Shown piece by piece: positions 78-17,384 of a stretch of 17,384 bases of DNA; within the stretch, counting starts at the first letter, position 1; every line of letters begins with the position of its first letter. This DNA comes from a virus (Duplodnaviria; Heunggongvirae; Uroviricota; Caudoviricetes): positions 1 through 17,384 of the IMG/VR virus record IMGVR_UViG_2778261639_000015; one strand, given 5' to 3'. The notes beneath the pieces are model-generated. The model had not been told where the DNA came from. It worked only from the letters and a program-made list of their open reading frames with translations, and did not search any database. The translations under genes were made by a program, and so were the position numbers.

Positions 78-156
78 GCTCATTGTTTTTTAACCTCAAC
101 TCAGATTAAAATTCGTTTTGTTCAGTGAATGATCTTGCCGGATACACACTGTTCAT

Positions 157-177: not shown

Positions 178-184
178 ATTTCTT

Positions 185-460: not shown

Positions 461-534
461 GTTTTTCTCCTTAATTAAGGTTGAGCGAATCCCTGCCATT
501 GCTGGCATAAATTCAGTTTCGCATAGTCAGTTAA

Positions 535-1997: not shown

Positions 1998-2007
1998 TTT
2001 TCGCACC

Positions 2008-2142: not shown

Positions 2143-2311
2143 CTTATCTCTCCCCTTAACGCCGGGTGGCGGAACTAACTGCTGCACTGCAAAATTTGAA
2201 TCCCGCCGTCATGTTCATACGCCTCGGGCTGGCTACTTAACCCCTTACCACGGCCTGGTAACTCGAAGTATTGCCCGGCGTTCTGTGGGGCGGGGTGGGT
2301 GGTATGCTGGA

Positions 2312-2340
2312 ACTATAGGTAATGCCTAATTGATTGTCAA
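2312..2340 (-). promoter_or_regulatory. PL-like leftward sigma70 promoter (-35 TTGACA, 17-bp spacer, -10 TATAGT)
   Basis: Minus strand reads TTGACA (2340-2335), 17 nt, TATAGT (2317-2312). A GCCTAAT operator half-site lies in the spacer. It points toward ydaG. Confidence 0.5.
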
Positions 2341-2377
2341 TAGGCTGTGCCTAATGTTTTGAGCGTAACCTAATAGG
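2321..2377. promoter_or_regulatory. OL-like operator cluster: repeated ATTAGGC/GCCTAAT half-sites and one TAGGC-N3-GCCTA palindrome
   Basis: GCCTAAT at 2324-2330 and 2349-2355; palindrome TAGGCtgtGCCTA at 2341-2353; CCTAATAGG at 2369-2377. The same motif family occurs on the other side of racR. Confidence 0.5.
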
Positions 2378-2449
2378 TGATGACGACAGGAGAAAGTGAT
2401 GGGGGGTTAAATAACGGAATCCAGGAGTTTTCCGTCAGACCATATAAGT

Positions 2450-2926
2450 TTAAGTTCCAGTTTTTGTGATGTTCTGGCTTTTTCGTTCAGATTCTAGAGC
2501 TTTCAGATACTTACCCACTTTCATTTCCATCGCTGCTATGTAGGCGCGAACATCGTGGTCAACCCAATCTGGTTCTGTAGCATTTCCAGATAACAGGAAA
2601 GCTACAATCGCTCTTATTTCATCAGAGGCTGCTTGATAAAGGTTGTTTATATCTAAAAGTTCACTTTTTGTATCTGAATTGGTGGGGGTTGGTATGGGGT
2701 ATTCGTTAAGCCCCCAATGCTCTGGACCAACAACATCAGAAAAGAAACGCCATAATTCTGGAAGTTTATCTTTACTTATGGAGCCTTTCTTAATCCAGTC
2801 ATAAATTGATGGTGGTTGGACTTTGAAGTGGCGTGCGACCTCCGCCTTTGATTTGACGGATCCCGATGCGATTTTTTTGTTAATGGCCTGCTCTATCGCT
2901 CGGCCTAAGTCTTTACCACTAAGCAT
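2450..2926 (-). CDS. racR: RacR prophage repressor (158 aa)
   Basis: ORF 2450..2926 (MLSGKDLGRAIEQAINKK...). Divergent from ydaS with an operator-rich intergenic region; AGGAG RBS upstream of the start on the minus strand. Confidence 0.9.
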   Translation of the reverse strand: MLSGKDLGRAIEQAINKKIASGSVKSKAEVARHFKVQPPSIYDWIKKGSISKDKLPELWRFFSDVVGPEHWGLNEYPIPTPTNSDTKSELLDINNLYQAASDEIRAIVAFLLSGNATEPDWVDHDVRAYIAAMEMKVGKYLKALESERKSQNITKTGT

Positions 2927-2945
2927 TGCTTAATATTCTCCTATG

Positions 2946-3019
2946 CTCATTGCATTAGGCAATCCCTACCCTCATTGCATTAGGCATAGCCTATTGACAT
3001 TTATGTTAGGCGTCGCCTA
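2946..3019. promoter_or_regulatory. OR-like operator cluster: 16-bp direct repeat x2 plus two TAGGC-N3-GCCTA palindromes
   Basis: CTCATTGCATTAGGCA at 2946-2961 and 2971-2986 (25-bp period). Palindromes TAGGCataGCCTA at 2981-2993 and TAGGCgtcGCCTA at 3007-3019. Confidence 0.55.
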
Positions 3020-3023
3020 ATAT
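2994..3023 (+). promoter_or_regulatory. PR-like rightward sigma70 promoter for ydaS (-35 TTGACA, 18-bp spacer, -10 TAATAT)
   Basis: TTGACA at 2994-2999 and TAATAT at 3018-3023. The operator palindrome 3007-3019 overlaps the spacer and -10; the ydaS ATG at 3050 follows a GGAG. Confidence 0.5.
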
Positions 3024-3049
3024 TTCTGTGTGTTTTTGGAGTTCATTCG

Positions 3050-3346
3050 ATGAAAAAAGAGAACTATTCATTCAAGCAAGCTTGTGCTGTTGTCGGTGGG
3101 CAATCAGCAATGGCTAGGCTTTTAGGTGTATCACCTCCAAGCGTAAATCAATGGATCAAAGGGGTACGTCAATTGCCTGCCGAGAGATGTCCAGCAATTG
3201 AACGTGCAACAAGAGGTGAGGTTCTGTGCGAAGAACTTCGTCCTGATATTGACTGGTCATATTTACGACGTTCGGCATGTTGTTCGCAGAATATGTCAGT
3301 GAAGCAACTAAATGACAGTAACAAATCCTCATTTGATCATACCTGA
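3050..3346 (+). CDS. ydaS: YdaS (98 aa), Cro-like HTH protein; toxic when derepressed in K-12
   Basis: ORF 3050..3346 (MKKENYSFKQACAVVGGQSAMARLLGVSPPSVNQWIKG...), an HTH-like segment. First rightward gene after the OR region. Confidence 0.85.
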   Translation: MKKENYSFKQACAVVGGQSAMARLLGVSPPSVNQWIKGVRQLPAERCPAIERATRGEVLCEELRPDIDWSYLRRSACCSQNMSVKQLNDSNKSSFDHT

Positions 3347-3368
3347 AACATCAAGAGGCAAATGATTC

Positions 3369-3791
3369 ATGAAAATCAAGCATGAGCACATCGAATCAGT
3401 GTTGTTTGCCCTAGCAGCCGAAAAAGGGCAGGCATGGGTAGCCAATGCCATTACTGAAGAATATCTGCGCCAGGGGGGCGGCGAATTGCCCCTGGTTCCA
3501 GGCAAGGACTGGAACAATCAGCAGAATATCTATCACCGTTGGTTGAAAGGTGAAACGAATGCGCAAAGGGAAAAAATTCAGAAATTGATCCCTGCGGTTC
3601 TGGCAATTCTTCCTCGCGAGCTGCGTCACCGACTCTGCATCTTCGATACCCTGGAACGCCGTGCATTACTGGCGGCGCAGGAAGCGTTAAGTACGGCAAT
3701 TGATGCGCATGATGATGCAGTCCAGGCCGTTTACCGGAAAGCGCATTTCAGCGGCGGCGGGTCTTCCGACGATTCTGTCATTGTTCATTAA
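3369..3791 (+). CDS. ydaT: YdaT (140 aa) early protein
   Basis: ORF 3369..3791 (MKIKHEHIESVLFALAAEKGQAWV...), 140 aa as in K-12 YdaT; immediately downstream of ydaS. Confidence 0.85.
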   Translation: MKIKHEHIESVLFALAAEKGQAWVANAITEEYLRQGGGELPLVPGKDWNNQQNIYHRWLKGETNAQREKIQKLIPAVLAILPRELRHRLCIFDTLERRALLAAQEALSTAIDAHDDAVQAVYRKAHFSGGGSSDDSVIVH

Positions 3792-3803
3792 GCAAAAGTT
3801 TCC

Positions 3804-4661
3804 ATGCTGTTTGTGCTTATTCTAAGCAATCGGGCAGCATCATACGGGGCAATTATGGCCGCATTACCATACATGCAACTGTACATAGCTGATTACCTGG
3901 CTGACACCATGCATTTGTCAGCAGAGGAGCATGGTGCGTATTTGTTGCTGATGTTCAATTACTGGCAAACAGGAAAGCCAATACCTAAAAACAGGCTGGC
4001 AAAAATTGCCCGTCTGACTAACGAGCGATGGGCTGATGTTGAACCGTCCTTGCGGGAGTTTTTTTGCGATAACGGCGAGGAATGGGTGCATCTTCGGATT
4101 GAGGAAGATCTGGCATCAGTCAGGGAAAAATTAACCAAAAAATCAGCCGCAGGAAAAGCATCGGTTCAGGCCAGAAGAAGCAGAAAGGAAGCAGATGTTC
4201 AAACAAAACAAGAGAGAAATTTAACAGGTGTTCAAACAGATGTTGAAGTGGTGTTTGAACATGATGTCAACACAAAGGCAACTAATAAAGATACAGATAA
4301 AGATCTAAAAACAGATCCCCCCCTAAATCCCCCCCGGGGGAATCGAGGTGTCAAAAAGTTTGACCCTCTGGATATTGCTTTGCCGAACTGGATTTCTGTC
4401 TCGCTCTGGCGTGAGTGGGTTGAATTTCGCCAGGCATTGCGTAAACCGATTCGAACGGAGCAGGGCGCTAACGGGGCGATACGGGAGCTGGAAAAATTCC
4501 GCCAGCAGGGTTTTTCACCTGAGCAGGTGATTCGACACAGCATCGCCAATGAATACCAGGGCTTGTTCGCGCCAAAAGGTGTTCGACCTGAGACGTTACT
4601 CCGACAGGTTAACACCGTCTCGTTACCGGATAGTGCGATCCCGCCAGGCTTCAGGGGGTAA
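3804..4661 (+). CDS. ydaU: YdaU (285 aa), probable replication-initiation (O-like) protein
   Basis: ORF 3804..4661. No clear RBS at 3804; an alternative in-frame ATG at 3855 (MAALPYMQLY...) has a better GGGG-type RBS. Sits directly upstream of the DnaC-like loader. Confidence 0.75.
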   Translation: MLFVLILSNRAASYGAIMAALPYMQLYIADYLADTMHLSAEEHGAYLLLMFNYWQTGKPIPKNRLAKIARLTNERWADVEPSLREFFCDNGEEWVHLRIEEDLASVREKLTKKSAAGKASVQARRSRKEADVQTKQERNLTGVQTDVEVVFEHDVNTKATNKDTDKDLKTDPPLNPPRGNRGVKKFDPLDIALPNWISVSLWREWVEFRQALRKPIRTEQGANGAIRELEKFRQQGFSPEQVIRHSIANEYQGLFAPKGVRPETLLRQVNTVSLPDSAIPPGFRG

Positions 4662-4667
4662 CTGACC

Positions 4668-5414
4668 ATGAAAAATATTGCGGCAGGAGGCATTCTTGAA
4701 CGTATCCGCAGACTGGCCCCGCCACATGTAACCGCCCCATTCAAAACGGTAGCGGAGTGGCGCGAGTGGCAACTTTCCGAAGGCCAGAAACGTTGTGAGG
4801 AGATCAACCGTCAGAATCGTCAGTTGCGGGTGGAAAAAATTCTGAATCGCTCTGGCATCCAGCCATTGCACCGCAAATGCTCGTTTGCGAATTACCAGGT
4901 GCAGAACGACGGTCAGCGATACGCGTTGAACCAGGCGAAATCTATCGCTGATGAACTGATGACCGGGTGTACAAATTTTGCGTTCAGCGGAAAACCTGGT
5001 ACCGGAAAAAACCATCTGGCGGCGGCTATCGGGAATCGCCTGCTGAAAGATGGCCAGACAGTGATTGTGGTTACCGTGGCTGATGTCATGAGTGCTCTAC
5101 ACGCCAGCTATGACGACGGGCAATCAGGCGAAAAATTTTTGCGGGAACTGTGCCAAGTGGATCTGCTGGTTCTTGATGAAATTGGCATTCAGCGCGAGAC
5201 AAAAAACGAGCAGGTGGTGCTGCACCAGATTGTTGATCGCCGGACAGCGTCGATGCGCAGCGTGGGGATGCTGACAAACCTGAACTATGAGGCCATGAAA
5301 ACATTGCTCGGCGAGCGGATTATGGATCGCATGACCATGAACGGCGGGCGATGGGTGAATTTTAACTGGGAGAGCTGGCGTCCGAATGTCGTCCAGCCAG
5401 GAATTGCGAAGTGA
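4668..5414 (+). CDS. ydaV: YdaV (248 aa), DnaC-like replicative helicase loader
   Basis: ORF 4668..5414 with Walker [18 protein letters not shown] and Walker B LLVLDEIG; RBS AGGGGG upstream. Confidence 0.9.
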
Positions 5415-5436
5415 TTTTTACCGGGAGGAAATTTTA

Positions 5437-6198
5437 ATGGAAACCGTTTTTGATGCACTGAAAGCAATGGGAAAAGCCACGTCGGTAGAACTGGCTGCGC
5501 GACTTGATATCAGTCGTGAAGAAGTGCTGAACGAGCTGTGGGAACTTAAAAAGGCTGGCTTCGTTGATAAAAGCGTATACACCTGGCGTGTGGCTGATAA
5601 CAACGTTCAGCAGGAACAGCCAGAGCAGGCAGAACTGCCGGAAGAAACCACCACGGCAACAGTAGCGAAAATCTCAGAGTGCGATTTAACCGCGACGATT
5701 GAACAACGTGGCCCACAAACGGCGGATGAACTGGCTACGTTTTTCGGCACCACATCACGCAAAGTGGCTTCAACGCTGGCAATGGCAATCAGCAAAGGCC
5801 GTCTGATTCGCGTTAATCAGAACGGTAAATTTCGTTACTGCATGCCGGGCGATGATTTACCAGCAGAGCCGAAAGCTGCATCGGTAACGGAAACTGATGG
5901 TAAAACCTTTCCTCAGCCAGCCGGTGTTGCGTTACCAGTACAGGAAGCGGCAACACAGGAAGATATTAAAACAGAAACTGTGGCGGACATTGTGCAGTCG
6001 CTGCCATCGTTTACTGAAACGCGAGCTGATGACCTGATTTTGCCATCGCTGCATATGGCAAACCGCGAACTGCGTCGGGCGAAAAATCATGTCCAGAAGT
6101 GGGAGCGAGTCTGCGCCGCGCTGCGGGAGCTGAACAAGCACCGGGATATTGTTCGACAGATTGCTGATTCTTCCCGCCGTGTTGTATCGGAAAAGTGA
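5437..6198 (+). CDS. YdaW-like hypothetical protein (253 aa); probably the intact version of the gene that is a remnant in K-12
   Basis: ORF 5386..6198 trimmed to the ATG at 5437 ([13 protein letters not shown]...), with GGGAGG 7 nt upstream. Acidic, low-complexity middle region. Confidence 0.6.
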
Positions 6199-6213
6199 TT
6201 GCCGGAGGCGCTT

Positions 6214-6645
6214 ATGGCAAAAGTATTTACACAAGAAGAGCGGGAAAAAATTAAAGGGCAGGTTGTTGAGCTAGTACGCCGGAGTGGACGCGAGACGTTA
6301 CGACAACTGGAGGCCAAGACAGGTGCGACAAGATATCTGATGAGCGTTCTCGCCAGAGAGCTGGTTGCCAGTGGCGATGTATACAACTCTGGTTACGGGT
6401 TATTCCCGTCTGAACAGGCTCGTAAGGACTGGCAAAATGCCCGCAAAAAACTATCCAGGGCAAAGGTGAAGAAACCATCTGTGGTTGATCCGGACCTTAT
6501 CTGGTCATTACCAGACGGAGAAATACGCCGCTACGACAGGCGTCTGAACATAATCTGTCGCGAGTGCCGGAAGAGTGAAGTTATGCAGCGTGTGCTGGCG
6601 TTTTATCAGAATGGTTTTCGAGAGAGGCTTGGAGATCAGGGATGA
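6214..6645 (+). CDS. Hypothetical protein (143 aa), basic; function unknown
   Basis: ORF 6199..6645 trimmed to the ATG at 6214 (MAKVFTQEEREK...), with GGAGG upstream. Last gene before the AT-rich insertion. Confidence 0.5.
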   Translation: MAKVFTQEEREKIKGQVVELVRRSGRETLRQLEAKTGATRYLMSVLARELVASGDVYNSGYGLFPSEQARKDWQNARKKLSRAKVKKPSVVDPDLIWSLPDGEIRRYDRRLNIICRECRKSEVMQRVLAFYQNGFRERLGDQG

Positions 6646-6838
6646 ATAGAACGATGAAGGATGGAAGCTACATATTCTCGGTACTAAGATTTATTTTTCT
6701 GACACAAAATGACCATTTGGCGTTACATAATCCCAAAAAAACGTATCAAAAATCTCAAAATGCGTTACGATTAGAGAGTATTTTGATTCTGCGTGCTCAT
6801 TTTTTGATTGCTGTGGCTTTTTGTTGTGGGAGTGTTGA

Positions 6839-7993
6839 ATGGATTATTTATCAGAAGTGTTAAAAATCATTGAAGGTGCAACAAAGGCAAATGCTTCGAT
6901 GGCTAGTAATTATGCTGGGTTGCTGGCAGATAAGCTCGAACAAAAAGGGGAGGTCAAGCAAGCCAGAATGATAAGAGAAAGGTTGCTTAGAGCTCCCCAG
7001 GCGTTGGCAGGAGCTCAAAGGGCTGGAGGTGGGATATCTCTGGGCTCATTACCGGTAGATATTGATAGTCGACTCAACACTGTTGATGTCAGTTATCCTA
7101 AATTAGACAGTTCAGAGATTTTTCTGCCTGCAGCAATCAGTACCCGTGTTGAAGAGTTTATCACTAATGTTCAACGTTATGATGAGTTTGTTAAAGCTGA
7201 TGCAGCATTGCCGAGTCGTATGCTCGTGTATGGAAAGCCAGGAACAGGTAAGACTATGTTATCTAAGTACATCGCTACCCGCTTAGATTTTCCACTTCTT
7301 ACAGTGCGTTGCGATACTTTGATTAGTAGTTTATTGGGACAAACCAGCAAAAATCTTAGACAGGTTTTCGATTATGTAATGCAGAGGCCATCAGTGCTTT
7401 TTTTAGACGAATTTGATGCTTTAGCTGGAGCAAGAGGTAATGAGAGAGATATAGGTGAGCTTCAGCGAGTTGTCATTTCACTATTGCAGAATATGGATGC
7501 GGCATCAGAGGATACGGTAATTATTGCCTCAACTAACCATGAGCAACTTCTGGATCCTGCAATCTGGAGGCGATTTAGCTTCAGAATTCCAATGCCTCTG
7601 CCTGACATACATCAGAGAGAGTTAATTTGGAAAAATCGTTTAAAGAATATGATATGTAGCGATCTAGATTTAAGTGATTTATCAAGAAAATCGGAAGGAT
7701 TATCCGGAGCAATAATTGAACAGGTGAGCTTGGATGCACGTAGGGATGCAGTTATTGAAGGTGCAAGTGTGATAAATCACCATAAATTGTATAGGCGTTT
7801 GTATCTTGCTCAATCGCTTATGGAAGGTGTAAATTTAAGCACTTACGAAGATGAAATTCGTTGGTTACGTTCTAAAGATAAAAAATTATTTTCTATCAGA
7901 GTTCTTGCTAATTTGTACAAACTTACATCAAGAGTAATTTCAAACATTCTGAAGGAGTCAGGAGCATATGAGCAGAAGGGGTACACAGTTTAG
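6839..7993 (+). CDS. AAA+ ATPase (384 aa, classical clade) with ~125-aa N-terminal extension; first gene of a candidate defence pair
   Basis: Walker A GKPGTGKT (aa 132-139, nt 7232-7255), Walker B VLFLDE (aa 186-191), sensor-1 STN (aa 231-233), Arg in the second region of homology (GARG, aa 197-200). RBS GGGAG 6 nt upstream. AT-rich codon usage. Confidence 0.85.
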   Translation: MDYLSEVLKIIEGATKANASMASNYAGLLADKLEQKGEVKQARMIRERLLRAPQALAGAQRAGGGISLGSLPVDIDSRLNTVDVSYPKLDSSEIFLPAAISTRVEEFITNVQRYDEFVKADAALPSRMLVYGKPGTGKTMLSKYIATRLDFPLLTVRCDTLISSLLGQTSKNLRQVFDYVMQRPSVLFLDEFDALAGARGNERDIGELQRVVISLLQNMDAASEDTVIIASTNHEQLLDPAIWRRFSFRIPMPLPDIHQRELIWKNRLKNMICSDLDLSDLSRKSEGLSGAIIEQVSLDARRDAVIEGASVINHHKLYRRLYLAQSLMEGVNLSTYEDEIRWLRSKDKKLFSIRVLANLYKLTSRVISNILKESGAYEQKGYTV

Positions 7994-10232
7994 TAACGCA
8001 AAAGTTACAAACCCAATGTTAAGAATCCCTTTTTCCAGTAGTGACTTGGGTGCAATAGTAAACGCTGGCGGTGGGGCAAAGGTATTGGTTGATGTAACAG
8101 CCGAATATAGACAAGGGCTAGTAAGAAATTTAACAACCAGTAAACATTATTTAGAATCCAAACTTTCAGAGTACCCTGGAAGCTTGGGTACTTTGGTTTT
8201 CAAATTAAGAGACCAGGGAATAGCCAAAACGCATAGGCCGAACAAAATTGCTCAAGAGGCTGGATTGCAAAATGCCGGTCATGCCAAAATAGATGAAATG
8301 TTGGTTGCTGCTCATGCCGGCTGTTTTGACGTATTAGAGTCAGTCATTTTACATCGGAATATTAAAGCGATTTTGGCTAATCTAAGCGCGATTGAGCGCA
8401 TTGAACCTTGGGATGAGAATAGGAAGGTTCCAGGAGGCACTGATGGTTTGTTTGAATCATCAAACATCCTTGTACGACTATTTGAGTACACAGGTGAAGA
8501 TGCAACTTACAACAACTATGAAAACGTTATTTCTATATTAGAACAACACGGAGTTAAATATGATGAGATTAGACAAAAATGTGGTCTTCCCTTATTAAGG
8601 ATAATGGATTTATCCCCAAATGATAGATATATATTAGACATTCTCATTGATTACCCGGGTATAAGAACGTTAATTCCAGAACCAAAATATTCAGCATTCC
8701 CGGTTAGTGTAAGTGATTCTGTTGGCATTGAAACAAATAGCTTTCCCGTACCATCAGAAGAATTACCCATTGTTGCTGTATTTGACACTGGGGTAAGCCC
8801 CATCGCGGCAACAATTACTCCTTGGGTAGTGAGTAGGGAAACATACGTAATTCCTCCTGATACGAGTTATGAACATGGGACTATGGTGTCTTCATTGATA
8901 TCAGGCGCTCATTTTTTAAATGACAATCATCCATGGATTCCTGATACAAAATCTAAAATCCATGATGTTTGTGCTTTAGATGAAAATGGATCTTATATAT
9001 CAGATTTAATTCTGAGGCTAGCAGATGCTGTAAATAAAAGACCAGATATAAAAGTCTGGAATTTGTCTTTGGGAGGCGGACCATGTAATGAGCAGACGTT
9101 TAGTGATTTTGCGATGGAGTTAGATCGGCTCAGCGATAAATTTGGTATTTTGTTTGTAGTTGCTGCAGGTAATTATGTAGATGAACCTATACGTACATGG
9201 CCAAATCCTGATCCGCTTGGAGGTGCTGATTTAATTTCCTCTCCTGGAGAGTCAGTCCGAGCACTAACAGTTGGTTCAGTTTCTCATATGGAAGCTAATG
9301 ATGCTTTAAGTGAAATTGGAACACCGACACCATATACTCGTCGTGGCCCTGGGCCTGTATTTACTCCAAAGCCAGATATAATCCATGCTGGCGGTGGGGT
9401 TCATAGACCTTGGAATGTAGGAGCAAGCAGTTTAAAGGTCGTAGGGCCAGATAATAGGCTTTGCTCTAATTTTGGTACTAGTTTTGCTGCTCCAATTGTG
9501 GCAAGTTTAGCTGCGCATACATGGCAGAGAATAGCCACTAATTCAGACTTTAATGTTTCACCATCATTGATTAAAGCATTATTAATTCATTCCGCTCAAT
9601 TATCTTCTCCTGATTACTCGCCAAGTGAAAGACGCTATTTGGGAGCGGGAATTCCTAATGAAGTTATTGAGACCTTATATGATAGTGATGATAGGTTTAC
9701 TCTGATTTTCCAAACATTCTTGGTTCCTGGGGTGAGGTGGAGAAAGGAAAACTATCCCATACCATCGGCACTTATTCAAAATGGAAAATTTAAAGGTGAG
9801 ATTGTAATTACTGCTGCATATGCACCACCACTGAACCCTAATGCCGGCAGTGAATATGTTCGCGCGAACGTAGAGCTAAGTTTTGGCTTAATTGAGAATA
9901 ATACTATAAAAGGAAAAGTGCCTATGGAAGGAGAAAACGGTCAATCTGGATATGAGAGAGCTCAAATTGAGCATGGTGGAAAGTGGTCACCAGTAAAAAT
10001 TCATCGCAAGGCATTTAATAAAGGAATTACTTCGGGTAACTGGGCTCTTCAGGCTAAAACAACGTTGAGAGCGAATGAACCGGCCTTAATGGAGCCTTTA
10101 CCTGTAACTATTGTAGTAACTTTAAAATCATTAGATGGAAACACACAAGTTTATGCTGATGGCGTAAGAGCTTTAAATGCTAATAACTGGGCTCACTATC
10201 CATTGCCTGCTCGTGTGCCAGTTTCCGTATAA
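7968..10232 (+). CDS. Subtilisin-like S8 serine protease (754 aa), no signal peptide, with large N- and C-terminal non-catalytic domains
   Basis: Catalytic motifs in subtilase order: D273 in VAVFDTGV (nt 8784-8786), H303 in YEHGTMV (nt 8874-8876), oxyanion N365 in WNLSLGG, S505 in GTSFAAP (nt 9480-9482). The start overlaps the ATPase 3' end by 26 nt. Confidence 0.9.
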   Translation: MSRRGTQFSNAKVTNPMLRIPFSSSDLGAIVNAGGGAKVLVDVTAEYRQGLVRNLTTSKHYLESKLSEYPGSLGTLVFKLRDQGIAKTHRPNKIAQEAGLQNAGHAKIDEMLVAAHAGCFDVLESVILHRNIKAILANLSAIERIEPWDENRKVPGGTDGLFESSNILVRLFEYTGEDATYNNYENVISILEQHGVKYDEIRQKCGLPLLRIMDLSPNDRYILDILIDYPGIRTLIPEPKYSAFPVSVSDSVGIETNSFPVPSEELPIVAVFDTGVSPIAATITPWVVSRETYVIPPDTSYEHGTMVSSLISGAHFLNDNHPWIPDTKSKIHDVCALDENGSYISDLILRLADAVNKRPDIKVWNLSLGGGPCNEQTFSDFAMELDRLSDKFGILFVVAAGNYVDEPIRTWPNPDPLGGADLISSPGESVRALTVGSVSHMEANDALSEIGTPTPYTRRGPGPVFTPKPDIIHAGGGVHRPWNVGASSLKVVGPDNRLCSNFGTSFAAPIVASLAAHTWQRIATNSDFNVSPSLIKALLIHSAQLSSPDYSPSERRYLGAGIPNEVIETLYDSDDRFTLIFQTFLVPGVRWRKENYPIPSALIQNGKFKGEIVITAAYAPPLNPNAGSEYVRANVELSFGLIENNTIKGKVPMEGENGQSGYERAQIEHGGKWSPVKIHRKAFNKGITSGNWALQAKTTLRANEPALMEPLPVTIVVTLKSLDGNTQVYADGVRALNANNWAHYPLPARVPVSV

Positions 10233-10245
10233 CAACTATATAAAT

Positions 10246-10275
10246 CAAACCCGCTGTAGCGGGTTTGATTTATTT
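10246..10275 (+). terminator. Rho-independent terminator after the protease gene
   Basis: Stem AAACCCGC (10247-10254), loop TGTA, stem GCGGGTTT (10259-10266), followed by a T-rich tail (gatttatttgtg). Confidence 0.6.
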
Positions 10276-10648
10276 GTGGGTGTGTTTTATAAAAATACCG
10301 CCCATACACAACAAAATACAAAAAGTATTACAGATAAAAAAGGAGCGTAATGTGCAGATTTGTTGTTTTCCATATTTACTCACCTTAATATGATTAATCC
10401 TGGTAAGATTGTTATTTCAGCGGTTTTCAAATGAGATATTATGCTAATCTGGCAGATTTGCATAACATTAAAATTTAATTTGTCTAACCGCTTTTAATAA
10501 TAAGCGTTGTATTTTTATCCCAGCAATCTATTGTTTGATTTTTATTCCATCAATGTGGGGGCTTTACACTGGAACCAGTTTATTTATACTTTATACGTCA
10601 GCCTGAACAACTGGCATCTGCTGCACTGCGCCATCGAGAGATTGAGAA

Positions 10649-11248
10649 ATGGCGCATATACAACTGGTCAAACAAACTTCTTCTGGTTTACTTCTCCCGG
10701 CGACGCCGGAGAGTTGCGATTTTCTGCATCAAATCAAAATAGGTGAGTGGATACACGCAGACTTTAAGCGTGTGCGTAACTACGCATTCCACAAGCGTTT
10801 TTTCAAACTCCTGCAACTGGGATTCGATTACTGGACTCCGGTCGGTGGGGCGATCACGCCTCGCGAACGAAAACTGGTGTCCGGTTTCGTTGATTATCTG
10901 TGTGAATCAGTAGGCCGGGAACATACGCCAGCTCTGAGCGAAGCCGCAGATCAATATCTGAATACAGTTGCGACACGCAGAACCCGGGATACGGCATTGC
11001 TAAAGTCGTTTGAGGCTTTCCGCGAGTGGGTAACCATTCAGGCCGGATTTTACACCGAGCATCTTTATCCTGATGGTAGTCGTGGGCGTCGGGCGAAATC
11101 TATCGCGTTTGCGAATATGGAGGAAACCGAGTTTCAGCAGGTTTATAAATCTGTACTGAATGTGCTGTGGAACTGGATCCTGTACCGAAAATTTTCCTCT
11201 CCGGAACAGGTCGAAAATGTGGCCGCGCAGCTACTGGAGTTTGCGTAA
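10649..11248 (+). CDS. DUF1367-like nin-region protein (199 aa)
   Basis: ORF 10649..11248 (MAHIQLVKQTSSG...). Size and position (upstream of a YbcO-like gene and a Q-like gene) match DUF1367 proteins of lambdoid prophages; family assignment is from memory. Confidence 0.5.
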   Translation: MAHIQLVKQTSSGLLLPATPESCDFLHQIKIGEWIHADFKRVRNYAFHKRFFKLLQLGFDYWTPVGGAITPRERKLVSGFVDYLCESVGREHTPALSEAADQYLNTVATRRTRDTALLKSFEAFREWVTIQAGFYTEHLYPDGSRGRRAKSIAFANMEETEFQQVYKSVLNVLWNWILYRKFSSPEQVENVAAQLLEFA

Positions 11249-11538
11249 TGGTGGATTTACGTAAAGCGGCGCGGGGGCAGATGTGCACCGTCAGAATTCC
11301 TGGCTACTGCAATCACGATCCGGAAACGTCTGTGCTGGCGCATTACCGACTGGCGGGAACGTGCGGAACAGCGACAAAACCACACGATATGCAGGCGGCG
11401 ATTGCCTGTAGCTCATGCCACGATCTAATCGACGGGCGGGTAAAAACCAGCGATTACACCAAAGAAGAATTACGCCTGATGCATGCAGAAGGTGTTTTTC
11501 GCACACAAGAAATCTGGAGAAAGGAGGGATATTTGTGA
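11248..11538 (+). CDS. YbcO-like putative zinc-binding nuclease (DUF1364-type, 96 aa)
   Basis: ORF 11167..11538 trimmed to the ATG at 11248 (MVDLRKAARGQMCTVRIPGYCNHD...CSSCHDLIDG...). The start overlaps the upstream stop (TAATG). Cys/His motifs; 96 aa as in DLP12 YbcO. Confidence 0.6.
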   Translation: MVDLRKAARGQMCTVRIPGYCNHDPETSVLAHYRLAGTCGTATKPHDMQAAIACSSCHDLIDGRVKTSDYTKEELRLMHAEGVFRTQEIWRKEGYL

Positions 11539-12077
11539 TTTACCCAACGAATACAGGAAAAAGCGGAGAACACCTTCGTCTCGCCACGCTGGAAAGTGTC
11601 TGGATTCAGGGCAAACTGCGTATGTGGGGGCGCTGGTCGTATATTGGCGGTGGCAGGTCAGGGAATATGTTCAATCAGTTGTTGGCATCCAAAAAACTGA
11701 CGAAAACAGCCATTAATGAAGCCCTGCGCAGAATGAAAAAAGCGGGAATAGAGAAAGCTGAGCTGGAAGCGTTTTTGCGAGAGATGATCAACGGCAAGCA
11801 AAAGAGCTGGCTGGCGCATTGTACTGATGCAGAGGCGTTATGTATTGATCGAGTCATAAGTGAGGTGCTGGCAGAGCATCCAGGATTGATTTGCATTCTC
11901 CGGCAACGCTATGAAGGGCGGGGGATGACTAAGCGCAAAATGGCTGAATTGCTAAATGATGCACACCCAGAGTGGTGTTTTAGCACATGCGAAAAACGGA
12001 TTGCTAATTGGTTAGCTGTTGCTGAGTATGCCCTATATATTCCCATGCGTGAATCATTTGCTGAGAAAATGGCTTGA
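11535..12077 (+). CDS. Putative late-gene antiterminator (Q-like), ~180 aa
   Basis: ORF 11415..12077 trimmed to the GTG at 11535, with AAGGAGGG 6 nt upstream; overlaps the YbcO-like stop (GTGA). Last gene before a terminator and the lysis cassette. Assignment is positional plus weak motif memory; start is uncertain (alternative ATG at 11622). Confidence 0.45.
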   Translation: MIYPTNTGKSGEHLRLATLESVWIQGKLRMWGRWSYIGGGRSGNMFNQLLASKKLTKTAINEALRRMKKAGIEKAELEAFLREMINGKQKSWLAHCTDAEALCIDRVISEVLAEHPGLICILRQRYEGRGMTKRKMAELLNDAHPEWCFSTCEKRIANWLAVAEYALYIPMRESFAEKMA

Positions 12078-12157
12078 TTTCTTACGTATAAACTGCTTCA
12101 ATTTTGCTATGCTTCGCAAAGCTGTATCGCGAGGCGGATTGCAGACATGGACATCGT

Positions 12158-12186
12158 AAAAAAACCGCTTAATGCGGTTTTTTTAC
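12158..12186 (+). terminator. Rho-independent terminator ~90 nt downstream of the Q-like gene (tR'-like)
   Basis: A-run, stem AACCGC (12163-12168), loop TTAAT, stem GCGGTT (12174-12179), then T-run; near-symmetric, so possibly bidirectional. Confidence 0.6.
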
Positions 12187-12504
12187 GTCAGGAAAGCAGG
12201 GGAGAATGCTGCTAGTTGGGCAACTGGTCTTTCTGCTCCAAATTATAACAGAGACCAGTTATAGTTTCGGTGCTGTGTTTTTTTTACAATATTGTGATAA
12301 CACATTGCTGGCGGGAGTTTTGATATTTCTTGGCAGGGGCTGATGATGCGTTATCCTGATGTCGTCAACTCATATAAAATGAGATGAGAGATCATTGCAG
12401 GGTGGTTTGTAATTCGCTGTTTAGCGGGACAATATGTTGTCTGATACAAGACACCCGACGCCTCAGATTACTATAATAAAGACGAAGCATCCTTTGTATT
12501 GACC

Positions 12505-12531
12505 AACCGCCTGTTTAGGCGGTTCTTTTTG
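12505..12531 (+). terminator. Second rho-independent terminator in the Q-to-lysis spacer
   Basis: Stem AACCGCCT (12505-12512), loop GTTT, stem AGGCGGTT (12517-12524), then CTTTTT. Confidence 0.5.
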
Positions 12532-13121
12532 GGCTGGTTTATTGTATGCCAAATGATTATTAAAAAGGTTGTGTTAATAACAAAATCCGAAATAATATGC
12601 CTGCATATTTTTATCTTGCTTATATTCTGCATATTGTGCATAGCAGGCTCATCCCTGCAATCAAAACTGTATGATGAGTATTTTTTGTTTTCCTTTTTTC
12701 CAGTCATCTGATGATGACCTGCTTCTTTTTAATCCGGATCGACATCAGTTTTTTAAGATAATTCCTGCGAGTTATATGCATAAATGCCACAAACTCCGCA
12801 TTTTATGTGGTTGGGAGTTGCCGGGCGCGCAGTGAGTTTGCTAAGAAAACTCCTGCATGGTGAATCCCCCTGTGCGGTGGGGTGATACCATTAACCTTTT
12901 CTGTCGCCGACAGGTATCACGAACATTTTGTTCACCGGGAGGCACCCGGCACCATGCACTTCAATAGATTCTCTCCACATTATGGATATTCTTTCAGAAT
13001 ATCCCACGCAGACTTTGTGTAAATGTTAACAAATGTGCGTTTTATTTGATCTGATTCGCTGTTTGAGCGTCCAAAACAACGGTATATATAATCCTTTACT
13101 ATATGACATATGTGAGGAAAA

Positions 13122-13550
13122 ATGGGTTTTCGTAGCGCATCAATTCTTACGTTGATTATTAGTGGGATTATTATCGGGTGCACTGATGCTGTATCGACAA
13201 ATTATCATGACCGTACATCATATTACTCCGATAAAGCAATAGAGACACAGTATGTGAGTTCATCTGAACGTACTTCTGATGTTAGTGAGGATATCCGTCT
13301 GTATGCCCATCAAATCAAGAGCGCCATCGAAAAACAGTTCGGGGATGCGAGTAAGTATTCAGGAAAAGAGTGTACACTGAGAATGCATATGGCCCCGAAT
13401 GGCCTTCTACTGGAGGTTAAAAGAGAAAGTGGAGACCTCGATTTATGTCGTGAAGCGATGAATGCGATAAAGAATGCTGATATACCTGCCCCCCCTTCGC
13501 CGGAAGTATATAAAGTATTTCAAAATGGGGTGCTGGATTTTAAACCCTGA
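13122..13550 (+). CDS. Lipoprotein with TolA C-terminal domain III-like domain (142 aa)
   Basis: Signal peptide with lipobox IIGC. C-terminus (YAHQIKSAIEKQFGDASKYSGKECTLRMHMAPNGLLLEVKRESGDLDLCREAMNAIKNADIPAPPSPEVYKVFQNGVLDFKP) closely resembles E. coli TolA domain III as I recall it (...YAGQIKSAIESKFYDASSYAGKTCTLRIKLAPDGMLLDIKPEGGDPALCQAALAAAKLAKIPKPPSQAVYEVFKNAPLDFKP). Own promoter-like elements: TTGAGC 13063-13068, TATAAT 13087-13092; RBS GAGG. Confidence 0.8.
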   Translation: MGFRSASILTLIISGIIIGCTDAVSTNYHDRTSYYSDKAIETQYVSSSERTSDVSEDIRLYAHQIKSAIEKQFGDASKYSGKECTLRMHMAPNGLLLEVKRESGDLDLCREAMNAIKNADIPAPPSPEVYKVFQNGVLDFKP

Positions 13551-13700
13551 TATTTATTGTTTTGTAATAAACGGTTTCGGCTTAGGTTTGTTCTGACACA
13601 GCTACGGCACTGAGCTAAATTTAGCGGATAGTCAGCTCTGAGCCAGTGGCGGACGTAACAACTACTATTGCTGAGATTTTAATGGATTGAGGAGCAAGAA

Positions 13701-14096
13701 GTGGGATTAAAGAAAATCGTTATGTTGACTTTTTGGGTCGGTTTTGTTGCGGGATGCACACCTTTACACCCTTCAGATTGCCACAAAACTACTGCTACAG
13801 GTAGTTGCAGTTCAGGACGCTGGGATGATCAGGATGAATGGGGGGCGCAAGCGCGGGGAATCAGAGCTGCAATTAATGCCAAACTTGATGAGCCGCATAA
13901 CTGGAAAGGGAAAAAATGCAGGTTGCATATGGAATTCTCTCAGGATGGCACGGCGTTAAAAATATCTACCAGTAACGGTGATAAAGCCTATTGCGAAGCG
14001 ATAAAGTCCGCAGCTCATAAAGCCAAATTTCCGGCCTTCAACAATCCGGAAGTCTACAGAGATTTTCAGAAATCTGGCTTTGACATGCGAGGTTAG
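13701..14096 (+). CDS. Second, divergent TolA-III-like lipoprotein (131 aa), GTG start
   Basis: GTG at 13701 with TGAGGAG 6 nt upstream; signal peptide with lipobox VAGC. Its C-terminal half keeps the same spacing of conserved residues as the upstream paralog (I..AI...GK.C.L......G......GD..C.A...A.K....P.......VY..F). Confidence 0.65.
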   Translation: MGLKKIVMLTFWVGFVAGCTPLHPSDCHKTTATGSCSSGRWDDQDEWGAQARGIRAAINAKLDEPHNWKGKKCRLHMEFSQDGTALKISTSNGDKAYCEAIKSAAHKAKFPAFNNPEVYRDFQKSGFDMRG

Positions 14097-14221
14097 CTCT
14101 TCAATTACTATATCTCATTCATAGCAAACTGACAGATTTGATGATGTTCTATATACGAAACCTGTGATGTCAAGTCTGAGCTAATACAAATAAACATAAT
14201 ATCAGAGAAATACATTTTATT

Positions 14222-14245
14222 AGCTCGCTACGGCGAGCTTTTTAT
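14222..14245 (+). terminator. Rho-independent terminator between the lipoprotein genes and the holin
   Basis: Stem AGCTCGC (14222-14228), loop TACG, stem GCGAGCT (14233-14239), then TTTTT. Confidence 0.55.
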
Positions 14246-14347
14246 ATTGCATCGTCTCCAGCATATATATCAATTAAGGCTCTGATTGATGTGTCTGAAA
14301 GCCTACACATAATAACTATGCCATCCGTTCCGTGCGGAGGTGAGGCT

Positions 14348-14563
14348 ATGAAATCCATGGACAAAATTTCAACAGGCATTGCCTACGGCACCTCCGCAGG
14401 CAGTGCTGGCTACTGGTTTTTACAGTTGCTCGATAGAGTAACTCCGTCACAGTGGGCTGCAATCGGTGTGCTGGGTAGTCTGGTATTTGGCCTGCTGACG
14501 TACCTGACAAACCTTTATTTCAAGATTAAAGAAGATAAGCGCAAGGCTGCGAGAGGTGAATAA
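14348..14563 (+). CDS. Phage-21-type pinholin (S21-like, 71 aa) with dual-start motif MKSM
   Basis: ORF 14291..14563 trimmed to the ATG at 14348 ([28 protein letters not shown]...), with GGAGGTGAGG upstream. Second in-frame ATG at 14357 gives the holin/antiholin pair. Confidence 0.85.
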
Positions 14564-15060
14564 TGCCTCCATCATTACGAAAAGCCGTTGCTGCTGCTAT
14601 TGGTGGCGGAGCAATTGCTATAGCATCAGTGTTAATCACTGGCTCAAGTGGTAACGATGGTCTGGAGGGTGTCAGCTACATACCATACAAAGATATTGTT
14701 GGTGTATGGACTGTATGTCACGGGCATACAGGAAAAGACATCATGCTCGGTAAAACGTATACCAAAGCAGAATGCAAAACACTCTTGAATAAAGACCTTG
14801 CCACTGTCGCCAGACAAATTAACCCGTACATCAAAGTCGATATACCGGAAACAACGCGCGGCGCTCTTTACTCATTCGTTTACAACGTGGGTGCTGGCAA
14901 TTTCAGAACATCGACGCTTCTTCGCAAAATAAACCAGGGCGATATCAAAGGCGCATGTGATCAGCTACGTCGCTGGACATATGCTGGCGGTAAGCAATGG
15001 AAAGGTCTCATGACTCGTCGTGAGATTGAGCGTGAAATCTGTTTGTGGGGTCAGCAATGA
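14563..15060 (+). CDS. SAR endolysin (R21-like lysozyme, 165 aa)
   Basis: N-terminal signal-anchor-release segment [20 protein letters not shown] followed by a T4-lysozyme-type catalytic region ([24 protein letters not shown]). The ATG overlaps the holin stop (TAATG). Confidence 0.9.
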
Positions 15061-15521
15061 ACAGAGTAACCGCGATTATCTCCGCTCTGGTTATCTGCAT
15101 CATCGTCTACCTGTCATGGGCTGTTAATCATTACCGTGATAACGCCATTACCTACAAAGCCCAGCGCGACAAAAATGCCAGAGAACTGAAGCTGGCGAAC
15201 GCGGCAATTACTGACATGCAGATGCGTCAGCGTGATGTTGCTGCGCTCGATGCAAAATACACGAAGGAGTTAGCTGATGCGAAAGCTGAAAATGATGCTC
15301 TGCGTGATGATGTTGCCGCTGGTCGTCGTCGGTTGCACATCAAAGCAGTCTGTCAGTCAGTGCGTGAAGCCACCACCGCCTCCGGCGTGGATAATGCAGC
15401 CTCCCCCCGACTGGCAGACACCGCTGAACGGGATTATTTCACCCTCCGGGAACGACTGGTAATGATGCAGGCCCAACTTGAAGGTGCTCAGCAATACATA
15501 ACCGAGCAGTGTTTAAAGTAA
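15057..15521 (+). CDS. rzpR: Rz i-spanin (154 aa), lambda-Rz-like
   Basis: ORF 15045..15521 trimmed to the ATG at 15057 ([38 protein letters not shown]...), near-identical to lambda Rz as I recall it. The start overlaps the endolysin stop (ATGA). Confidence 0.85.
15277..15462 (+). CDS. rzoR: Rz1 o-spanin lipoprotein (61 aa) embedded in the +1 frame of Rz
   Basis: [24 protein letters not shown]...[15 protein letters not shown]: lipobox VVGC and a proline-rich mature region, entirely inside the Rz gene. Confidence 0.85.
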
Positions 15522-15658
15522 AATCTTAACTACAATATGATTCATTTTGATGATTGTTTCATAAGGAACAGTGAAGTAAGATCTAAGAGGAGTTAAATTT
15601 TATACAGTATAATCATAATATTGCAGCAAGGTGGTTATAATTGAAAGAATATTTAGAT

Positions 15659-17116
15659 ATGAATACATCTCATGTAAGAGTTGTTACTCATATGTGTGGG
15701 TTCCTGGTTTGGCTCTATAGTCTTTCAATGTTGCCACCAATGGTTGTAGCATTGTTTTATAAAGAAAAAAGCCTGTTCGTTTTCTTTATAACTTTCGTTA
15801 TATTTTTTTGCATTGGTGGCGGAGCGTGGTATACAACTAAGAAATCTGGCATTCAATTACGTACCCGTGATGGGTTTATTATAATTGTAATGTTTTGGAT
15901 TTTGTTTTCTGTTATTAGTGCATTCCCTTTATGGATTGACTCAGAACTTAATTTAACGTTCATTGATGCTCTGTTTGAAGGGGTTTCTGGAATAACAACA
16001 ACAGGAGCAACTGTAATTGATGATGTTAGTTCATTACCTCGGGCATATTTGTACTATCGGTCACAGTTAAATTTTATAGGTGGTTTAGGAGTTATTGTTC
16101 TGGCGGTTGCAGTATTGCCATTATTGGGTATTGGTGGTGCAAAGCTTTATCAGTCAGAAATGCCGGGGCCATTTAAGGATGACAAACTCACTCCCCGCCT
16201 GGCCGATACGTCACGGACACTGTGGATAACTTATTCTTTATTAGGTATTGCTTGTATTGTCTGTTATAGACTTGCAGGAATGCCTTTGTTTGATGCTATT
16301 TGTCACGGGATTTCCACAGTTTCGCTTGGTGGTTTCTCAACTCATAGCGAGAGTATCGGATATTTTAATAACTATTTGGTTGAGCTGGTGGCTGGTTCTT
16401 TTTCCCTGCTATCGGCTTTCAACTTCACTCTTTGGTATATTGTTATTAGCAGAAAAACGATAAAACCTTTAATCAGAGATATTGAACTTCGTTTCTTTCT
16501 GTTAATAGCCTTAGGGGTGATCATTGTTACCTCTTTCCAGGTCTGGCATATAGGTATGTATGACTTGCATGGAAGTTTTATTCATTCGTTTTTTCTTGCC
16601 AGCTCCATGCTCACTGATAATGGTTTAGCTACGCAGGATTATGCAAACTGGCCCACGCACACGATAGTGTTTTTGCTGTTGTCAAGTTTCTTTGGGGGAT
16701 GTATCGGTTCAACCTGTGGTGGAATTAAGTCACTTCGATTTCTTATACTTTTCAAACAAAGCAAACACGAGATAAATCAACTTTCTCATCCCAGAGCGTT
16801 GTTAAGTGTAAATGTAGGAGGGAAGATAGTTACAGATCGTGTAATGAGGTCTGTATGGAGTTTCTTTTTTCTTTATACTCTCTTCACGGTGTTTTTTATA
16901 CTGGTGTTAAATGGTATGGGATATGATTTTCTTACATCATTTGCAACAGTGGCTGCATGTATTAATAATATGGGATTAGGTTTTGGGGCTACTGCATCGT
17001 CATTCGGAGTGCTTAATGACATTGCAAAATATTTAATGTGCATAGCTATGATTCTTGGTCGCCTTGAAATTTATCCTGTTATTATATTGTTTTCAGGTTT
17101 TTTTTGGCGCTCCTAA
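15659..17116 (+). CDS. trkG: TrkG K+ uptake protein (485 aa), prophage-borne paralog of TrkH
   Basis: ORF 15641..17116 trimmed to the ATG at 15659 (MNTSHVRVVTHMCGFLVWLYSL...). Multi-pass membrane protein with repeated glycine-containing selectivity-filter-like motifs; AT-rich. Matches K-12 TrkG length and sequence from memory. Confidence 0.95.
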   Translation: MNTSHVRVVTHMCGFLVWLYSLSMLPPMVVALFYKEKSLFVFFITFVIFFCIGGGAWYTTKKSGIQLRTRDGFIIIVMFWILFSVISAFPLWIDSELNLTFIDALFEGVSGITTTGATVIDDVSSLPRAYLYYRSQLNFIGGLGVIVLAVAVLPLLGIGGAKLYQSEMPGPFKDDKLTPRLADTSRTLWITYSLLGIACIVCYRLAGMPLFDAICHGISTVSLGGFSTHSESIGYFNNYLVELVAGSFSLLSAFNFTLWYIVISRKTIKPLIRDIELRFFLLIALGVIIVTSFQVWHIGMYDLHGSFIHSFFLASSMLTDNGLATQDYANWPTHTIVFLLLSSFFGGCIGSTCGGIKSLRFLILFKQSKHEINQLSHPRALLSVNVGGKIVTDRVMRSVWSFFFLYTLFTVFFILVLNGMGYDFLTSFATVAACINNMGLGFGATASSFGVLNDIAKYLMCIAMILGRLEIYPVIILFSGFFWRS

Positions 17117-17307
17117 TATATGGCTGATTTATAATTGTGAGTTTAATATTATGTTGACTCACTCATTGATCCAATACCTAACTTTACCAGCAACACCTCC
17201 GCCCCCAGTAGCACTGGCTGCTGGGGTGCGTTTTATTCATAAAGCAAGGCTGTATGAGCGAGAAATTAAAGATAGTCTATCGCCCATTACAAGAATTGTC
17301 ACCGTAT

Positions 17308-17384
17308 TGTATGGGTCCACCACATATTGCAATTTTTATTCTCTTTTAAAATATATTCCACGGGCGTCATTAGTGCGAGCGCCT
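17308..17384. repeat. Right copy of the perfect 77-bp terminal inverted repeat (reverse complement of 1-77)
   Basis: Exact reverse-complement identity to 1-77; identity ends at 17307. Confidence 0.9.

Follow-up and report, generated by a model that had tools for sequence, protein, structure and literature searches.

We have analyzed a window of 17,384 nucleotides, positions 1 to 17,384 of the IMG/VR virus record IMGVR_UViG_2778261639_000015, which is a lambdoid prophage of the Rac type. Two adjacent genes within it, here called ORF1 and ORF2, encode small predicted lipoproteins whose C-terminal domains are homologous, far beyond chance, to domain III of Escherichia coli TolA (TolA-III). The best-supported reading of these proteins, which we advance tentatively on the strength of sequence and model comparisons, is that they would serve as lysogenic-conversion (moron) decoys against Tol-dependent colicins and filamentous phages. 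A preliminary description of this DNA had proposed two lipoprotein genes with lipoboxes IIGC and VAGC, and both open reading frames (ORFs) and both lipoboxes are indeed present. The features concerned are as follows.

13122..13550, + strand: ORF1, a 142-residue predicted lipoprotein with an ATG start and a GAGGA Shine-Dalgarno sequence at 13114-13118
13689..13694, + strand: GAGGAG Shine-Dalgarno sequence of ORF2, 6 nt before the GTG at 13701
13701..14096, + strand: ORF2, a 131-residue predicted lipoprotein with a GTG start

Homology of ORF1 and ORF2 to TolA domain III

Comparison with the Pfam family TolA_C (PF06519, gathering score 25) gave 82.6 bits for ORF1 (E 2.4e-23) and 54.6 bits for ORF2 (E 1.3e-14), both above the gathering score, and the likeness to TolA proposed in the preliminary description is well above significance. 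A phmmer search of the Protein Data Bank (PDB) matched ORF1 to the E. coli TolA-III chains 1s62, 3qdp, 2x9a and 1tol at E ~1e-27 in one ungapped alignment of 88 residues. Against residues 334-421 of E. coli TolA, 52 of the 88 positions (59%) are identical, including the terminal LDFKP that had been singled out in the preliminary description. ORF2 retains the same skeleton at 31% identity to TolA-III, and its description as the more divergent of the two is accurate. The cysteines corresponding to the C363/C388 disulfide pair of TolA-III are invariant in both the ORF1 and the ORF2 families. AlphaFold (AF2) models of both proteins have a domain confidence (predicted local distance difference test, pLDDT) of ~90, with the first 40-50 residues disordered. 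When superposed with Foldseek, the ORF1 model (residues 54-142) fits both 2x9a_B, the g3p-bound TolA-III chain, and 1tol with a root-mean-square deviation (rmsd) of 0.7 Å and a template modelling (TM) score of 0.96, 2x9a being the best structural match, while the ORF2 model (residues 45-131) fits free TolA-III (3qdp) with an rmsd of 1.1 Å and a TM score of 0.92. Both models display the alpha/beta fold with a three-stranded sheet and superpose on solved TolA-III.

Despite this homology, neither ORF1 nor ORF2 qualifies functionally as a TolA. The profile for full-length TolA, NF007065, scores ORF1 at 107.8 bits and ORF2 at 53.7 bits, far short of its cutoff of 213. TIGR02794 scores ORF1 at 75.6 bits (above its 59.45, through the C-terminal 97 residues only) and ORF2 at 47.2 bits, which is below that value; the matches to the full-length TolA profile cover only positions 293-386 of 387. 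Both proteins are without the N-terminal transmembrane anchor and the long helical domain II and have instead a signal peptide and a short disordered linker. Their genes lie not in a tol-pal operon but in a prophage at ttcA, between a Q-like gene and a holin gene. The gene name tolA that PGAP applies to the 142-residue ORF1 is a misannotation caused by the domain.

The export signals of the two proteins are of the lipoprotein type. ORF1 begins with MGFRSASILTLIISGIIIGC and has the lipobox IIGC ending in Cys20 (13179-13181), followed by T and D, and ORF2 begins with MGLKKIVMLTFWVGFVAGC and has the lipobox VAGC ending in Cys19 (13755-13757), followed by T and P. A charged n-region, a hydrophobic h-region and a lipobox of the form [LVI][ASTVI][GAS]C are found in both, and both families conserve such lipobox-bearing export signals. 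Both proteins have Thr and not Asp at residue +2, from which Lol sorting to the outer membrane is predicted, and both are probably lipidated and sorted to that membrane. For ORF2, PGAP places the start at ATG 13722, and the signal peptide thereby loses its charged n-region. The copy on plasmid pO157 has an ATG at the position of the window's GTG, with the same Shine-Dalgarno sequence, and the Shine-Dalgarno sequence and start region are kept in Enterobacter and Serratia copies; for these reasons we take the start as 13701.

In ORF1 a disordered linker rich in Ser, Thr and Tyr (residues 21-53) leads to the TolA-III domain at residues 54-142 (13281-13547). The domain of ORF2 occupies residues 45-131 (13833-14093) and is preceded by a Cys-containing linker, CHKTTATGSCSSGRWDDQDEW, which is modelled with low AF2 confidence and equals the folded domain in its conservation across genera; a role as a second binding element is possible. 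Across the ORF2 family this linker (residues 20-45, 13758-13835) reads PLHPSxCHKTTAxGSCSSGRWDDQDEWG, with 2 extra cysteines and an acidic Trp-containing stretch.

ORF1 and ORF2 are 29% identical to each other. The preliminary description had treated ORF2 as a tandem paralogue of ORF1; the adjacency stands, but the identity of 29% and the different nearest neighbours rule out a recent tandem duplication and place ORF2 in a separate lineage. These neighbours come from a domain alignment of the best hits of an exhaustive profile search, which covered 1.84 billion representatives and returned 587 matches. ORF1 has E. coli TolA as its nearest neighbour (59%), while ORF2 falls in a clade of short proteins only, with at most 35% identity to any full-length TolA. 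A word-index search with ORF1 found nothing beyond close E. coli and Shigella relatives, to which the ORF1 family is confined at 65-100% identity, and the wider family emerged from the exhaustive search. The ORF2 family comprises 370 clusters in Citrobacter, Enterobacter, Klebsiella, Raoultella and Serratia at ~80-90% identity. Among the best 148 of the 587 matches, 95 are no longer than 170 residues; a lipobox is found in at least 60 of the 95, and several of the remainder carry Sec signal peptides. The closest relative is a full-length TolA, not another short form, for 20 of 74 short forms. These results suggest that short exported proteins consisting of TolA-III only are numerous and that the domain was captured repeatedly and independently.

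Both genes are under purifying selection. The ratio of nonsynonymous to synonymous substitution rates (dN/dS) is 0.39 for ORF1 against a variant from E. coli FDAARGOS_1283 (~82% nucleotide identity), and for ORF2 against the pO157 copy it is 0.12 overall and 0.08 over the domain. That the two genes are functionless captured fragments, hitch-hiking in a recombination-prone slot, is very improbable. Although the region from Q to holin is known as a cargo dumping ground and the pieces derive from a host gene, the ORFs are intact and have acquired signal peptides and lipoboxes, their dN/dS values are 0.12-0.39, and they are kept at >99% identity over hundreds of genomes and conserved across genera and element types.

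Binding surfaces and the proposed decoy function

The N1 domain of g3p (g3p-N1), colicin N (ColN) and the N-terminus of TolB each add a strand to beta3 of TolA-III (PMC4339652; PMC7391070), and the TolA substitutions D418P and K420P abolish the binding of all three (PMC4339652). Colicin A (ColA) adds to the opposite edge, beta2, at L375-P380 and makes cation-pi contacts with K368, K379 and K396 (PMC3365938). The preliminary description had named TolB, Pal and CpoB as partners of TolA-III; the contact with TolB through beta3 holds (PMC4339652), while that with Pal is disputed (PMC7391070). ORF1 keeps the L-D-F-K-P of beta3 exactly, including the equivalents of D418 and K420. Its ColA-contact strand reads LLEVKR where that of TolA reads LLDIKP, and its cation-pi lysine positions are H/K/K, with two of three kept.

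Conservation was then compared between 50 full-length TolAs and 72 short forms. At D418 and K420 the short forms match or exceed the conservation of full-length TolAs. The biggest losses fall at K351-F352-Y353, which are conserved at 72/84/70% in full-length TolAs versus 26/35/22% in short forms (Fisher p 1e-6 to 5e-8, not phylogeny-corrected), and the Tyr353 position is Gly in ORF1 and Asp in ORF2. The TolA substitution Y352H (numbering offset by one) came from screens for lost TolA-TolB interaction, and together with V407E it makes TolB binding ~six-fold weaker (PMC2707214). The pattern is only suggestive of short forms that keep the edge on which invaders dock and relax a determinant for the host partner.

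As decoys, ORF1 and ORF2 would be exported by Sec and then lipidated at the lipobox cysteine, and Lol would sort them to the inner leaflet of the outer membrane, where a flexible linker of ~25-35 residues would hold a free TolA-III in the periplasm. Because they have neither the membrane anchor nor domain II, they could not be energised by TolQR and could act by binding only. By strand addition, g3p-N1 and colicin N (on beta3) and colicin A (on beta2) would dock on the edge strands of the decoy, which under the outer membrane would capture ligands emerging through it ahead of the real, energised TolA. A lysogen or plasmid host would thereby gain tolerance both of Tol-dependent bacteriocins and of filamentous phages specific to a pilus, and two unrelated versions side by side would offer a wider ligand range. 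Lipidation, sorting, expression in the lysogen, ligand binding and the resulting phenotype are all steps that we infer. The superinfection exclusion proposed in the preliminary description is unlikely in its strict sense, that is against the element's own kind, since the predicted targets are Tol-dependent invaders and not lambdoid phages.

According to what Levengood-Freyermuth et al. are said to have found in 1993, export of TolA-III to the periplasm renders E. coli colicin-tolerant and leaky. Periplasmic g3p-N1, which sequesters TolA, confers resistance to colicin A and a 4-log drop in phage uptake (PMC10424213), a result which indicates that the g3p/TolA-III interaction is limiting for entry. 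Independent support for the decoy reading comes from an IncI relaxase neighbour, a TolA-III/TonB pair on a cloacin plasmid and the apparently repeated origin of exported TolA-III-only proteins.

Distribution of the module and its relatives

Of 5426 complete E. coli genomes, 775 (~14%) contain the module (13040-14250) at >=80% coverage, nearly all at >=99% identity, and the upstream kilobase is also shared in only 450 of the 775. Any match at all was obtained in 1340 of the 5426 (about a quarter), and 526 further places are plasmid-borne. Phage mEp460_ev081 carries window positions 12931-14297 (1.37 kb) at 99.9% identity, where this segment follows another Q gene and the lysis cassette differs in part, and E. 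coli 55989 has the same arrangement. In E. coli FDAARGOS_1283 (L014, 3581-6361) the order is Q, tRNA-Ile, tRNA-Arg, the ORF1 variant, STnc100, nanS-p and holin; ORF2 is absent beside the variant, which occupies the slot of stxAB in Stx phages. Presence/absence polymorphism with different flanks, by which a moron is recognized, is thus found for this module. A scan of viral contigs returned only identical copies. FDAARGOS_1283 also has an ompC-like porin gene on the opposite strand just after quuD, giving two envelope-related cargo genes in one late region.

Plasmids in PLSDB with a homologue of ORF2 (~88% amino-acid identity) number 607, and 259 of these are conjugative. The homologue on IncI1/B/O and IncK2/Z plasmids (MPF_I, MOBP) lies 68 bp 3' of the nikA/nikB relaxase operon, co-oriented with it and next to trbCBA, and it is a backbone gene of IncI-type conjugative plasmids. 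The pO157 copy comes directly after a nikB remnant. PGAP gives the plasmid copies N-terminal extensions (143 residues), the lipoprotein start MGVKK being internal. The plasmid loci are the following.

L097/L098, 6995-7426: ORF2 homologue
L102/L103, 3465-3896: ORF2 homologue
L003 (pO157), 5995-6426: ORF2 homologue

I-pili are the receptor of the filamentous phage If1. The g3p of If1 docks on TolA-III (PDB 2x9a).

The position between nikB and trbCBA is also compatible with a retargeted scaffold, in which the edge strands, especially those of ORF2, would bind a different periplasm-crossing ligand, whether an invader or a partner. Such a ligand could be another bacteriocin or a tailocin, part of the conjugative pilus or the DNA-transfer apparatus (for exclusion or as a transfer accessory), or the TolB beta-propeller, reached through the W-rich acidic linker of ORF2. 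ORF2 shares, after all, only 31% identity with TolA-III, its edge strands are altered, its linker CHKTTATGSCSSGRWDDQDEW is equally conserved, and beta-strand addition is promiscuous (PMC4339652). We nevertheless judge this explanation unlikely: no positive evidence points to a specific alternative ligand, the likeness of the linker to the colicin TolB box GASDGSGWSSENNPW is loose and unaccompanied by a match, and retargeting is not the simplest reading of ORF1, which resembles TolA too closely for that. With no PDB sequence match for the linker as a mimic of the TolB box, we keep that resemblance only as a low-probability lead.

Relatives of the TolA-III lipoproteins also accompany bacteriocin genes. 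A 10-kb ColRNAI cloacin plasmid of Klebsiella pneumoniae (L004, 3687-4420) encodes a 123-residue TolA-III lipoprotein with the lipobox LTAC and the C-terminus PLDFRP. Its gene overlaps by 4 bases the gene for a 121-residue Sec-exported TonB C-terminal domain, and the pair, which adjoins the cloacin/immunity/lysis operon and a RelE/ParE pair, looks like a natural two-transducer decoy cassette. Other Klebsiella plasmids of 10-12 kb were matched by the ORF1 protein search and have a TolA plus TonB-family pair by annotation, L004 alone having been inspected. In one paper a Klebsiella cloacin plasmid is said to carry 'TolA and TolB family proteins', without explanation. The possibility that CloDF13 encodes these proteins was not supported, the genes being absent from CloDF13 itself. 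On large Klebsiella plasmids (L095, 5229-6258; L096, 5061-6258) a 144-residue TolA-III protein is paired with a thioredoxin-fold (Dsb-like) protein, which perhaps forms the TolA-III disulfide; in L096 the pair comes right after an HlyD plus peptidase-ABC exporter of the microcin type. Chromosomal singletons of the ORF2 family stand among housekeeping genes in Enterobacter and next to GmrSD and HEPN genes in Serratia.

Phages themselves rarely carry the two genes. Among 50,697 deposited phage genomes the genes occur in a single one, mEp460_ev081, and no virulent phage with either gene was found among these records. This distribution leads us to prefer a benefit to the lysogen over a role in the lytic cycle, and it disfavours a general lysis accessory. 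It also bears on the proposal that ORF1 and ORF2 modulate the Tol-Pal system, with an anchored TolA-III that binds the TolB N-terminus (perhaps CpoB) and partly uncouples TolA from TolB-Pal. A looser outer membrane, more vesiculation, an altered lysogen envelope, induction of Rcs and capsule, or help in breaching the outer membrane and freeing virions when the late operon fires would be the consequences. TolB does bind TolA-III at beta3, which ORF1 keeps exactly, and the genes lie in the late transcription unit immediately before the holin, endolysin and spanin genes. Cells in which TolA no longer contacts TolB show the full tol phenotype (PMC4339652), and regulation of outer-membrane vesicles through TolB interactions has been proposed in the field (PMC7391070). 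The affinity of TolA for TolB is, however, weak (~40 uM versus ~1 uM for ColN; PMC4339652), and the short forms have only a degenerate version of the KFY motif linked to TolB. Absence from virulent phages and presence in one deposited phage genome speak against a general lysis aid, the prophage already has a spanin pair, and the family resides on IncI and bacteriocin plasmids and as chromosomal singletons without nearby lysis genes. On balance we see little probability in Tol-Pal modulation.

Returning to the decoy reading, several observations weigh against it. The edge strands of ORF2, FDMRG and ALKIST, are unlike those of TolA, and its equally conserved linker hints at a further ligand or at another one altogether. 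The suggested tuning at Y353 is a correlation drawn without phylogenetic correction. Since the TolB N-terminus binds the same beta3 edge, a decoy could cripple the Tol-Pal system of its own host. PADLOC returned no match of ORF1 or ORF2 to a catalogued defence or exclusion protein, by which a known defence system is ruled out. The housekeeping context of the ORF2 family in Enterobacter is not required by a story of pure mobile-element defence. The promoter-like site before ORF1 (13063-13092) is only a consensus match, statistically indistinguishable from chance, and the position within a late operon would mean that both proteins are also strongly made in lytic growth.

The homology of these proteins to TolA is itself not new. 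PGAP labels them 'cell envelope integrity protein TolA' or 'TolA C-terminal domain-containing protein' and RAST labels them 'TolA protein', while their family in PHROG, number 5772, is annotated 'unknown function'. In the open-access full-text literature we found no paper on a prophage- or plasmid-encoded TolA-III-only protein or on its function. A decoy of this kind would be a new mechanism within a known category, the exclusion and tolerance lipoproteins of mobile elements (Cor, Llp). More broadly, Enterobacterales prophages and IncI-type and bacteriocin plasmids may repeatedly have captured the C-terminal domains of TolA and TonB as an exported, unenergised and often lipid-anchored 'import-hub decoy' immunity, of which ORF1 and ORF2 would be a two-specificity example; we consider this generalization conceivable but rather doubtful. 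If true, it would define a previously unrecognised, widespread class of determinants against Tol- and Ton-dependent bacteriocins and pilus-specific filamentous phages.

If the decoy reading is true, about a quarter of complete E. coli genomes would encode a so far overlooked determinant by which Tol-dependent colicins and filamentous phages are tolerated, which would help to explain the common colicin tolerance of natural isolates. It would likewise explain why IncI-type plasmids keep an ORF2 homologue beside the relaxase, and to the principle 'mask the receptor' in phage and plasmid exclusion it would add that of 'copy the receptor domain'. Antimicrobials based on colicins, klebicins and phages, as well as phage display hosts, would be affected. 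The finding would also correct a systematic misannotation of genes now named tolA or 'cell envelope integrity protein'.

Prophage setting and comparison with known systems

An identical stretch is found in E. coli LD39-1, in a prophage at ttcA with intR, recET, kilR and sieB. The local gene order in the window is DUF1367, DUF1364, the Q-like DUF1133 gene, ~1 kb without convincing ORFs, ORF1, ORF2, the lysis genes and trkG. The placement between Q and holin given in the preliminary description is upheld by Pfam, which identifies the Q-like DUF1133 gene and a P21-type holin. The features of this region are listed below.

11535..12077, + strand: Q-like late-gene regulator (DUF1133; Pfam PF06576, E 3e-106; PGAP coordinates in locus L002), upstream boundary of the slot
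12448-12477, + strand: promoter-like AAGACA-18-TATAAT, a 10/12 match from a consensus scan
12505-12524, + strand: terminator-like hairpin and T-run from a scan, 3' of the 12448-12477 site
12825..13011, + strand: Rfam STnc100 sRNA-like (small RNA-like) element (cmscan 86.6 bits versus a gathering score of 47), just upstream of the ORF1/ORF2 module
13063..13092, + strand: candidate sigma-70-like promoter of ORF1, TTGAGC-18-TATAAT, a 10/12 consensus match with the same sequence in E. coli 55989
14222..14247, + strand: intrinsic-terminator-like hairpin AGCTCGC-TACG-GCGAGCT (7-bp stem, 5 GC pairs) and T-run, closing the module before the holin
14348..15521, + strand: lysis cassette (Pfam PF04971, PF00959, PF03245, PF06085), downstream boundary of the slot
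14348-14563, + strand: P21-type holin
14563-15060, + strand: lysozyme
15045-15521, + strand: Rz, with Rz1 embedded at 15277-15462

The Q-like gene has a weak similarity to Phage_antitermQ PF06530 (E 1.3e-5, below cutoff). In the spacer 3' of it, the 12448-12477 site and the 12505-12524 hairpin could be a candidate late promoter/tR' pair; a further hairpin with a T-run lies at 12158-12185. STnc100 is conserved in the late-region slot at 86.6-162 bits, upstream of ORF1 in the window, L013 (6782-6972) and L001 (5891-6081) and downstream of the ORF1 variant in L014 (6531-6737). STnc100 may act as an sRNA, or may serve the late transcript as a leader or as a processing element. Of the sigma-70-like promoter that the preliminary description assigned to ORF1, the sequence TTGAGC-18-TATAAT is present but not statistically distinctive: 11 promoter-like sites were found versus 7.0 +/- 2.6 in shuffled sequence, and such sites are neither rarer than in the shuffles nor enriched over them. 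Together, the promoter-like site before ORF1 and the terminator-like hairpin after ORF2 resemble the classic moron layout. The module is at the same time situated within what is presumed to be the late transcription unit.

Elsewhere in the window, trkG (15641-17116, + strand, 37.7% GC), a hallmark of Rac cargo, follows directly after the spanin genes, and the late region that is deleted in the K-12 Rac prophage is intact. The same prophage carries the anti-phage defence system ietAS (6839-10232, + strand, ~40% GC) between the replication genes and the nin-like region, with the AAA ATPase IetA (PADLOC E 9e-143) and the subtilase IetS (E 4e-301). A tRNA scan of the window found none.

Comparison with known systems sets ORF1 and ORF2 apart from each of their closest counterparts. 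With E. coli TolA-III (1TOL, 2X9A, 3QDP/3QDR, 1S62) they share the fold, the disulfide and the C-terminal beta3 strand, whereas the anchor, domain II, TolQR coupling and KFY motif of E. coli TolA are without counterpart in them. Lambdoid morons (stxAB, bor, lom-type) use the same slot from Q to holin, and the ORF1/ORF2 module has promoter-like and terminator-like signals of its own; the cargo differs in that ORF1 and ORF2 are without homology to toxins or serum-resistance proteins. Cor (of phi80, HK022 and N15) and Llp (of T5) are small phage lipoproteins that guard against phages and colicins of one entry route. Their general logic and cellular compartment are those proposed for ORF1 and ORF2, but they inactivate the outer-membrane receptor FhuA, while ORF1 and ORF2 would be soluble-domain decoys of a periplasmic co-receptor, and the two groups have no sequence relationship (PHROG 5772, no PADLOC match). 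In laboratory constructs reportedly made by Levengood-Freyermuth in 1993, Howard in 2001 and Henry in 2004, a periplasmic TolA-III or TonB C-terminal domain is said to have produced colicin tolerance, leakiness, more vesicles or blocked TonB-dependent uptake. Such dominant-negative constructs have in common with our proposal that a C-terminal domain which is exported but not energised competes against the native transducer. The constructs are artificial, overexpressed and soluble, whereas ORF1 and ORF2 are natural, diverged, predicted to be lipid-anchored and borne on mobile elements, and the Klebsiella plasmid pairs both kinds of domain. The superinfection immunity and colicin tolerance that the g3p of filamentous phages confers on Ff-infected or g3p-N1-expressing cells exploit the same g3p-N1/TolA-III interaction to block entry (PMC10424213) and are the mirror image of our proposal: there an overproduced ligand masks the receptor, while here the ligand would be captured by a copied receptor domain.

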